64,000 bases of DNA, from the sequence record NC_054910.1; one strand, written 5' to 3'. The notes under the pieces were generated by a model. That model was given only the letters and a program-made list of their open reading frames with translations, made no database searches and was not told the DNA's origin. Source of the DNA: Escherichia phage EcNP1. The translations under genes were made by a program, and so were the position numbers. Below, in pieces: positions 16,877 to 17,704 of this stretch (position 1 is its first letter; every line of letters begins with the position of its first letter).

Positions 16877-16952
16877 ATTGGTCGAGGCAGTAGGGATCGA
16901 ACCTACGACCTAGGACTTAGAAGGTCCTTGCTCTTCCTTCTGAGCTATGCCT
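16877..16952 (-). tRNA. tRNA-Arg (anticodon UCU)
   Basis: hand-folded 76-nt cloverleaf, loop CUUCUAA, T-loop UUCGAUC, encoded CCA. Confidence 0.85.
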
Positions 16953-16956
16953 CGGA

Positions 16957-17031
16957 TTTGGCGGACGTGATAGGATTCGAACCTATAACCAATCGCTTAA
17001 CAGGCGATCGCTCTGCCATTGAGCTACACAT
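16957..17031 (-). tRNA. tRNA-Asn (anticodon GUU)
   Basis: hand-folded 75-nt cloverleaf, loop CUGUUAA, T-loop UUCGAAU, encoded CCA. Confidence 0.8.
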
Positions 17032-17035
17032 CCAA

Positions 17036-17122
17036 ATTGGTGGGGAGTGATGGAGTCGAACCACCCGAGTCGCAATGACAATGGATTTACAGTCCACACC
17101 GCTACCTCTACGGAATAACTCC
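17036..17122 (-). tRNA. tRNA-Tyr (anticodon GUA)
   Basis: 87 nt, class II with long variable arm, loop CUGUAAA, acceptor GGGGAGU/ACUCCCC, encoded CCA. Confidence 0.8.
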
Positions 17123-17131
17123 CCAAATTAA

Positions 17132-17206
17132 TTTGGTGGCCCTGGGTGGAATTGAACCACCATCTGGCGATTATGAGTCGCTTGCTTGAACCTTCCAGCT
17201 ACAGGG
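17132..17206 (-). tRNA. tRNA with anticodon CAU (Ile2 or Met)
   Basis: 75 nt, loop CUCAUAA, T-arm GGUGG-UUCAAUU-CCACC, encoded CCA; T4 carries a CAU Ile tRNA here. Confidence 0.8.
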
Positions 17207-17207
17207 C

Positions 17208-17283
17208 CTTGGTGCTGATTGACGGAATCGAACCGCCGACCTTCTCATTACAAGTGAGTTGCTCTACCTACTGAGCTAAATCA
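17208..17283 (-). tRNA. tRNA-Thr (anticodon UGU)
   Basis: 76 nt, loop CUUGUAA, encoded CCA. Confidence 0.85.
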
Positions 17284-17288
17284 GCAAA

Positions 17289-17378
17289 ACTGGCGGAGGC
17301 GATAGGATTCGAACCTATGAGTCGCCGGAGCGACTGCCGGTTTTCAAGACCGGTGCATTAAACCACTCTGCCACGCCT
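17289..17378 (-). tRNA. tRNA-Ser (anticodon UGA)
   Basis: 90 nt, class II long variable arm, loop CUUGAAA, encoded CCA. Confidence 0.85.
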
Positions 17379-17380
17379 CC

Positions 17381-17454
17381 AGTCTCCATACAAGGATTTG
17401 AACCTTGGACCTCCTGATCCCAAATCAGGCGCTCTACCAAACTGAGCTACACGG
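17381..17454 (-). tRNA. tRNA-Pro (anticodon UGG)
   Basis: 74 nt, loop UUUGGGA, T-arm CAAGG-UUCAAAU-CCUUG, CCA not encoded. Confidence 0.8.
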
Positions 17455-17464
17455 AGTAAATTAA

Positions 17465-17538
17465 ATTGGAGCGGATAATGAGAATCGAACTCACATCATC
17501 AGATTGGAAGTCTGAGGTAATACCATTATACGATATCC
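17465..17538 (-). tRNA. tRNA-Gly (anticodon UCC)
   Basis: 74 nt, loop CUUCCAA, encoded CCA. Confidence 0.85.
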
Positions 17539-17543
17539 GCAAA

Positions 17544-17630
17544 TTTGGTGCGAGAAGTGGGACTCGAACCCACAAGGAAATCATTCCGCAGCATTTTAAG
17601 TGCTGTGCCTTTACCAATTTGACCATTCTC
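17544..17630 (-). tRNA. tRNA-Leu (anticodon UAA)
   Basis: 87 nt, class II long variable arm, loop CUUAAAA, encoded CCA. Confidence 0.85.
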
Positions 17631-17631
17631 G

Positions 17632-17704
17632 CGCTGGGAATAAAGGACTCGAACCTTTGCATCCTGGAATCAAAATCCAGTGCCTTACCAACTTGGCTAA
17701 TTCC
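17632..17704 (-). tRNA. tRNA-Gln (anticodon UUG)
   Basis: 73 nt, begins UGGGAAUUAGCCAAGUUGGUAAGGCA as in T4 tRNA-Gln, CCA not encoded. Confidence 0.85.

Follow-up and report, generated by a model that had tools for sequence, protein, structure and literature searches.

The tRNA genes of Escherichia phage EcNP1 (NC_054910.1) were examined in a 64,000-nucleotide stretch of its genome, which, as a whole, we call the window. ARAGORN called exactly 10 tRNA genes in it, which occupy 16879 to 17706 on the minus strand and run Gln(UUG), Leu(UAA), Gly(UCC), Pro(UGG), Ser(UGA), Thr(UGU), a tRNA with the anticodon CAU, Tyr(GUA), Asn(GUU), and Arg(UCU). The Rfam model RF00005, at its gathering score of 29, returned the same 10 and no others, so that the ten contiguous genes, in the order given in a preliminary description made from the letters alone, are correct and lie far above chance. 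The ends placed there at 16877 and 17704 hold to within 2 nucleotides (nt), whereas the spacers of 1 to 10 nt are short as described but, by ARAGORN boundaries, reach down to zero (0, 5, 10, 1, 5, 1, 9, 4, and 4 nt). Nine of the ten genes score 59 to 74 bits (E values of 1e-10 to 1e-14), with tRNA-Tyr borderline at 29.7 bits (E 0.039); the Asn (74.1 bits) and Tyr cloverleaves, on whose acceptance by a covariance model the description had staked its claim, both pass. The list of open reading frames (ORFs) holds none inside the array and no segB ORF, the gene of a homing endonuclease, in the cluster. Taken as a whole, the locus is very likely a segB-free allele of the tRNA cluster of a T4-like coliphage (Tequatrovirus), in which eight tRNAs would read A-ending codons, tRNA-Tyr and tRNA-Asn would meet a raised demand, tRNA-Tyr would in addition serve counter-defence, and SegB would explain the state of T4.

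Starting at the array's 5' end, tRNA-Gln (17633 to 17706; 67.4 bits) directly abuts tRNA-Leu (17546 to 17632; 59.3 bits; long variable arm), which is followed by tRNA-Gly (17467 to 17540; 65.8 bits), tRNA-Pro (17382 to 17456; 66.8 bits), tRNA-Ser (17291 to 17380; 62.7 bits; long variable arm), and tRNA-Thr (17210 to 17285; 72.9 bits). The remaining four are the CAU tRNA (17134 to 17208; 59.9 bits), best read as tRNA-Ile2; tRNA-Tyr (17038 to 17124), 87 nt long, with a long variable arm and a 4-nt linker joining the acceptor stem to the D stem; tRNA-Asn (16959 to 17033), the best scoring of the ten; and tRNA-Arg (16879 to 16954; 68.1 bits), of the RB3/T2L type and unlike the T4/T6 tRNA-Arg(UCU) in sequence. 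Reading of the 3' ends bore out that CCA is encoded in all but Gln and Pro: Gln ends in CCCAG-C, after which Leu begins, and Pro in GGAGA-CT, so that tRNA-Ser starts 2 nt past the discriminator base of tRNA-Pro. The host CCA-adding enzyme would complete these two. Leu, Gly, Thr, and Asn encode CCA, as do Ser and the CAU tRNA, which in T4 do not; the phage should therefore need the CCA-adding and 3'-trimming enzymes of its host for two tRNAs (Gln and Pro) and not for four.

The array is not new. A 1.2-kb query around it, some part of which is matched by 984 phage records, matches Escherichia phage vB_EcoM_Nami (Tequatrovirus) at 100% identity, whose GenBank record already annotates all ten tRNAs; several genome papers describe Tequatroviruses with "10 tRNA"; and the RB3/RB1 and T2L clusters were published in 2008 (Brok-Volchanskaya et al., PMC2330249). 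Annotated in an identical genome, long published, and the majority type among T4-like coliphages, it carries little weight as a discovery. The RB3 cluster (AJ884578) agrees with the array in all ten tRNAs, their order, and their spacing, is followed by rnaD and rnaC, and has no segB; it aligns with window 16879 to 17746 at 98.7% identity over 868 nt without a gap. The two differ between tRNA-Arg and rnaD, where RB3 has no ORF and the window has a 116-amino-acid (aa) ORF. In T2L (AJ880101), the order is Gln-Leu-Gly-Pro-Ser, trna.1, Met(CAU)-Tyr-Asn-Arg, trna.2, rnaD, and rnaC. The window shares with T2L the run from CAU through Tyr, Asn, and Arg to trna.2, rnaD, and rnaC, including a tRNA-Asn that is identical in T2L and RB3, but it keeps tRNA-Thr, whose interruption and replacement by the ORF trna.1 reduce the T2L set to nine tRNAs.

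The T4 record (NC_000866) contains, as the preliminary description stated, eight tRNAs, without Tyr or Asn and with Arg set apart, and it names the separator: the order is Gln-Leu-Gly-Pro-Ser-Thr-Ile, segB, Arg, rnaD, and rnaC. T4 and the window occupy the same genomic position; their Leu, Gly, and Pro tRNAs are identical, Ser and Thr nearly so, as is Gln outside its anticodon stem-loop, and rnaD, rnaC, and the terminator are conserved. In our alignments, the CAU tRNA of the window, RB3, and T2L represents one allele and that of T4 and T6 another, and the two are diverged. The latter two phages have, downstream of this gene, segB and an Arg(UCU) of quite different sequence, where the window has Tyr, Asn, its other Arg(UCU), and the 116-aa ORF, and homology restarts exactly at rnaD. 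With its gene order running into rnaD and rnaC, between the T4 trna.2/ipI side and e.8, with no segB ORF, and with a predicted SegB site in tRNA-Asn, the cluster is, judged by its sequence, the segB-free RB3/T2L-type allele of the T-even tRNA region.

The anticodon stem-loop of tRNA-Gln (17664 to 17680, minus strand) itself comes in two alleles among T-even relatives, each fully compensated: CUGGA-UUUUGAU-UCCAG in the window and RB3, and UAGCA-CUUUGAC-UGCUA in T4 and T6; T2L, unlike the window, carries the T4-type stem, with one change. Loop positions 32/38 are U/U in the former and C/C in the latter, and the remainder of the tRNA is identical.

SegB is known to cleave preferentially inside the T2L tRNA-Asn gene, and when T4 and T2L infect together, homing of segB eliminates ∼1250 bp carrying Met, Tyr, Asn, Arg, trna.1, and trna.2 (PMC2330249). 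We reconstructed the preferred 27-bp cleavage/recognition site, GGTTCGAATCCTATCACGTCCGCCAAA, from the text of that paper. The 27-mer fits all of the clues given there (5' GGTTCRANTCC, 3' CCAR) and differs from the T2L tRNA-Ser site at G6, A16, G18, A26, and A27, as stated by its authors. It has an exact match in the window at 16957 to 16983 (minus strand), and a phage bearing this target would be the recipient in a mixed infection. In T4, the homing endonuclease gene and its own tRNA-Arg would have taken the place of the Tyr-Asn-Arg block. A selfish endonuclease gene would then have replaced the Tyr and Asn tRNAs in T4 and would account for the difference between T4 and the window. Among GenBank phage records, an adjacent Tyr+Asn pair (at least 80% coverage) occurs in 444 and the T4-type segB+Arg arrangement in 131, so that the larger set is the common state and T4 the minority one. 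The idea that the larger set is a special adaptation of this phage consequently falls, and T4 is not the reference state for tRNA content in T-even phages. What survives of the adaptive interpretation is a fit with codon and amino acid usage and a defence role for tRNA-Tyr; it is T4 that is the exception, and a homing endonuclease probably explains how it came to differ.

The CAU tRNA had been left as either Ile2 or Met. ARAGORN, GenBank, and the 2008 paper all label it Met, as its anticodon suggests. ARAGORN, however, also assigns "Met" to the T4 tRNA that is annotated as isoleucyl-tRNA, which indicates that the label is a mere literal translation of the anticodon. We searched the gene against 5,426 complete E. 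coli genomes, in which 6,004 records matched; in all 15 of the records listed across their ranking, the best match is annotated tRNA-Ile, with 71-82% identity, so that among the records listed the gene is closer to the host tRNA-Ile(CAU) than to the host tRNA-Met. The major identity elements for E. coli TilS are the base pairs 4:69 and 5:68 (PMC11947777). The CAU tRNA, whose ends pair as GGCCCTG...CAGGGCC, shares with one E. coli tRNA-Ile(CAU) the acceptor start GGCCCT and hence (i) both of these pairs, as C4:G69 and C5:G68, as well as (ii) the 15-nt anticodon arm GCGACTCATAATCGC, A73, and CCA. Further, AUA codons are ∼15-fold enriched in the phage (15.3 versus 1.0 per 1000 codons in E. coli), while AUG stands at 0.87 times the host frequency (25.0 versus 28.6). 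An elongator tRNA-Met, for which the anticodon and the existing labels speak, is improbable in the face of the host matches, the shared identity pairs and anticodon arm, the same naive label on the T4 tRNA-Ile, and the codon counts. The sequence points strongly to an Ile2-type, lysidine-dependent tRNA, which the TilS of the host would turn into a reader of AUA; the widespread tRNA-Met label on this gene is probably wrong and should be Ile2.

Codon usage in the window, taken from 73 non-overlapping ORFs (56 kb, 35.9% G+C), was compared with that of eight E. coli K-12 genes (5,072 codons), and amino acid usage in the phage with that of 39 E. coli proteins (14,613 residues). The A-ending codons matched exactly by the eight T4-type anticodons are all enriched in the phage, 2.5- to 28-fold. 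Besides AUA, these are, per 1000 codons in phage versus E. coli, CAA (23.5 versus 8.9, 2.7-fold), UUA (30.4 versus 5.7, 5.3-fold), GGA (23.4 versus 4.1, 5.7-fold), CCA (15.5 versus 6.3, 2.5-fold), UCA (19.8 versus 3.4, 5.9-fold), ACA (19.6 versus 2.8, 7.1-fold), and AGA (11.1 versus 0.4, 28-fold). Each of Gln, Leu, Gly, Pro, Ser, Thr, Ile2, and Arg would thus read an A-ending codon favoured by an AT-rich phage. For Asn and Tyr, the comparison with the host yielded an increase in AAU (43.7 versus 9.1, 4.8-fold) and UAU (33.5 versus 11.6, 2.9-fold) and a depletion of AAC and UAC. The three most over-used amino acids are Tyr (1.84-fold), Lys (1.68-fold), and Asn (1.65-fold), and the Tyr and Asn tRNAs would serve amino acids whose demand rises most in infection. 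Adaptation to codon usage, as suggested at the outset, is therefore consistent with the enriched A-ending codons and the over-use of Tyr and Asn, within host samples that are small. These same figures are what one would expect if tRNA-Tyr and tRNA-Asn were purely translational supplements for an AT-rich, Tyr- and Asn-rich genome, with no part in counter-defence. Relatives with 11 tRNAs, however, add a tRNA-His although His is under-used, and further evidence on this alternative comes from tRNA-Tyr.

The tRNA-Tyr gene is real, although it might at first be taken for a decaying pseudo-tRNA carried along in the array. It clears the general Rfam model by less than one bit (29.7 versus 29), its fold of minimum free energy is no cloverleaf (z = -1.33), its 4-nt linker is unusual, a Phapecoctavirus homologue is annotated "tRNA-Pseudo-GTA", and two homologues are missed by ARAGORN. 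The cloverleaf, on the other hand, is at most 2.1 kcal/mol less stable than that fold (-27.2 versus -29.3), and the linker is 4 nt throughout the phage Tyr family, as against 2 nt in E. coli, which probably explains the low score with a generic model. Over 11 phage homologues, 261 of 264 cells in the stems are paired and 19 of the 24 pairs occur with more than one pair type. These pairs were counted with an anchor-based script, since a MAFFT alignment misregisters the 5' end of BF23, PG7, and Mt1B1P17; the script takes the best register for the 5' strands of the acceptor and D stems and so favours pairing in those two. In the D stem, for example, CCG/CGG gives way to CTG/CAG, and in the variable arm GTC/GAC to GCC/GGC; such compensatory changes preserve all five stems in homologues from six or more phage groups, with A73, the GUA anticodon, and CCA conserved. 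Because its stems covary in homologues, and because its T6 and T5 counterparts are produced and function in vivo, we regard the gene as real and its decay as highly improbable.

The family to which tRNA-Tyr belongs includes members in T6, T5/BF23, Vequintavirus, Felixounavirus, an N4-like Klebsiella phage, Jiaodavirus, Karamvirus, and Phapecoctavirus. In T6 (AP018814; Chihara et al. 2026, PMC13096335), the gene differs from the window copy at three positions and has the same flanks. In BF23, an unrelated phage with a far larger tRNA-rich region, whose copy is annotated as identical to that of T5, blastn identity is 86%. The T5/BF23 gene is identical to the window gene in the variable arm, UGUCAUUGCGACUCG, and shares with it the 4-nt linker and the T arm, and its acceptor, D, and anticodon stems differ from it by compensatory changes; homology to the T6/T5-type tRNA-Tyr thus extends to the variable arm. 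Against E. coli genomes, tRNA-Tyr gave plasmid matches only, in 269 genomes at 91-95% identity, and chromosomal E. coli tRNA-Tyr genes gave no blastn match at E values up to 10. A nearly identical tRNA-Tyr in unrelated phage families and phage-plasmids, without a blastn match to the chromosomal gene, suggests selection on the molecule itself and not on supply alone.

The E. coli plasmids bearing tRNA-Tyr measure ∼72-120 kb. In the one that was examined (NZ_CP024264), the gene lies within an Asn-Tyr-Thr-Ser cluster at 5921 to 6471 of the locus; the plasmid carries phage-type helicase, primase, and ligase genes and is probably a phage-plasmid. In several unrelated phage groups, tRNA-Tyr adjoins or neighbours tRNA-Asn, and often Asp or His, and relatives of the window phage have Tyr-Asn-His; these are tRNAs with GUN anticodons (the queuosine family).

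A counter-defence role for tRNA-Tyr draws on published experiments. The T6 tRNA-Tyr is expressed and, when overexpressed or amplified, overcomes the Septu system; deletion of the T6 tRNA region increases sensitivity to Septu; and T4, which is without tRNA-Tyr, cannot escape Septu, whereas T2 is resistant (PMC13096335). Likewise, the T5 tRNA-Tyr rescues the phage from retron-Eco7 (Azam et al. 2024, PMC11555353). The nucleases of Septu and retron-Eco7 (PtuAB) cut tRNA-Tyr in the variable arm and not in the anticodon. The suggestion that the larger set answers host anticodon nucleases thus finds backing for Tyr in the T6/Septu and T5/retron-Eco7 experiments, with the correction that the cut is in the variable arm. 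Like its T6 and T5 counterparts, the window tRNA-Tyr may sustain infection when host PtuAB nucleases destroy tRNA-Tyr. Septu cleaves the T6 tRNA-Tyr as well, which makes the rescue a matter of dosage and speaks for a purely translational supplement. Set against that are the deletion in T6 that raised Septu sensitivity, the plating rescued by tRNA-Tyr overexpression, and the sharing of the molecule among unrelated phages, and we consider supply as the sole function of Tyr and Asn to be a conceivable but lesser prospect than supply combined with a defence role for tRNA-Tyr.

For tRNA-Asn, the defence system to be considered is PARIS, whose nuclease AriB cuts the Lys(UUU) and Thr(UGU) tRNAs of E. 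coli, and less strongly its tRNA-Asn(GUU), between positions 40 and 41; the cut adjoins a UAAU motif (U36-A-A-U-C/N41, the slash marking the cut), and T5 variants substituted there restore infection (PMC12409363). Two 2024 papers on PARIS make no mention of tRNA-Asn, while a 2025 paper on AriB specificity does. At this site, the window tRNA-Asn has UAAGC/G versus UAAUC/C in E. coli asnT, and the window tRNA-Thr has UAAUG/A (U36-A-A-U-G40-A41) versus UAAUC/A in thrU, so that both carry a substitution at or beside the cleavage site relative to the host tRNA. By their sequence, the substitutions in Asn and Thr are compatible with evasion of AriB, and a role of tRNA-Asn against PARIS/AriB, parallel to that of tRNA-Tyr, is one that we infer only by analogy. 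The main AriB target, tRNA-Lys, is absent from the tRNA set of the window phage. As a side observation, the tRNA-Asn(GUU) genes of Jiaodavirus KpnM6E1, Phapecoctavirus Mt1B1_P17, and Karamvirus PG7 (478 to 562, 801 to 886, and 1074 to 1158 of the respective loci) measure 85-86 nt and have a long variable arm, which is unusual for tRNA-Asn, and they retain the host-like UAAUCCG segment.

A bolder and rather doubtful extension would make the Tyr-Asn(-His)-Arg block a counter-defence cassette in place of an aid to codon usage, in which Asn (G39, G41), together with Thr (G40), would be resistant to AriB/PARIS, Tyr would buffer against PtuAB, and SegB homing would replace the block. Were this so, homing-endonuclease traffic would decide which tRNA-targeting defences a T-even phage survives. 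In any case, the Tyr, Asn, and Thr genes stand at the junction between phage tRNAs facing tRNA-cleaving defences and the homing endonucleases that reshape such loci.

Several points weigh against the overall reading of the cluster as a supply of A-codon readers with Tyr and Asn added for demand and Tyr for counter-defence: (i) the E. coli reference sets are small (eight genes and 39 proteins) and partly highly expressed; (ii) His is under-used (0.6-fold), and codon usage leaves the tRNA-His of the 11-tRNA relatives unexplained; (iii) tRNA-Tyr has the marginal score, the non-cloverleaf fold, and the one relative annotated as a pseudo-tRNA that are given above; (iv) with Septu cleaving the T6 tRNA-Tyr itself, that tRNA works by dosage and not by resistance (PMC13096335); (v) a promoter scan did no better than chance, with 6 sites versus 8.3 in shuffles; and (vi) expression, processing, charging, lysidine formation, and the defence role rest, for this phage, on sequence and on its relatives.

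The tRNA locus is a mosaic hot spot. T6, in addition to its tRNA-Tyr, has segB and the T4-type Arg after Tyr, has no Asn, and has lost Pro and Ser, of which a Pro/Thr hybrid remains.

The loss in T6 (AP018814, ∼3143-3230 of the locus) appears to have occurred by recombination between copies of TAGCTCAG common to Pro and Thr; the hybrid consists of the 5' acceptor strand of Pro on the body of Thr, is not called by ARAGORN, and is annotated tRNA-Thr. The additional tRNA-His of the 11-tRNA relatives lies after Asn and before Arg, and some of them have an endonuclease ORF between this gene and Arg. In phage vB_EcoM_11B_SA_NWU, this is a 206-aa "endonuclease" ORF (561 to 1181 of the locus), a second nuclease insertion in the same array and placed differently from segB.

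Downstream of the array, all on the minus strand, lie three further elements. The first is the 116-aa ORF (16512 to 16862), identified by the ORF list, the T2L annotation, and alignment as the counterpart of T2L trna.2 and absent from RB3 and T4; it belongs to PHROG 3355 (unknown function, E 1e-54). Pfam gave no match for this ORF and three neighbours, and PHROGs gave families of unknown function only. The second is a homologue of rnaD, the species 2 stable RNA, at ∼16396 to 16515, with boundaries that are approximate; it aligns with rnaD of T4, RB3, and T2L, and blastn placed the RB3 gene at 16396 to 16513 with 90.7% identity. The third is a homologue of rnaC, the species 1 stable RNA (16249 to 16388), which is 99.3% identical to RB3 rnaC. 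An Rfam search of 16100 to 16900 with a permissive E value returned chance-level matches only, and no curated family covers rnaC or rnaD. Beyond rnaC, a hairpin resembling an intrinsic terminator, with 10 pairs (7 of them G-C) followed by TTTTT (16177 to 16200, minus strand), is conserved in T4, T2L, and RB3 and is likely the end of the tRNA/rnaD/rnaC transcription unit. At the other end, ∼107 nt upstream of tRNA-Gln, is a weak sigma-70-like promoter match (TTGACT-17-TATCAT, 10/12; 17813 to 17841, minus strand). Since the genes lie head to tail on one strand and share one terminator, the ten tRNAs, trna.2, rnaD, and rnaC would most likely form one precursor, which, by analogy with T4, host enzymes would cut.

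A second copy of the terminator hairpin that follows rnaC (AAAAAGCCCCAACCTTTCGGTCGGGGCTAAG, plus strand) lies 557 bp from the first, in repeats at 15576 to 15646 and 16133 to 16203 that flank a 147-aa ORF (15651 to 16094; PHROG 2280, unknown function). Window positions 14954 to 16167 are absent from the RB3 sequence and, together with the duplicated terminators, look like cassettes inserted between repeated terminators.

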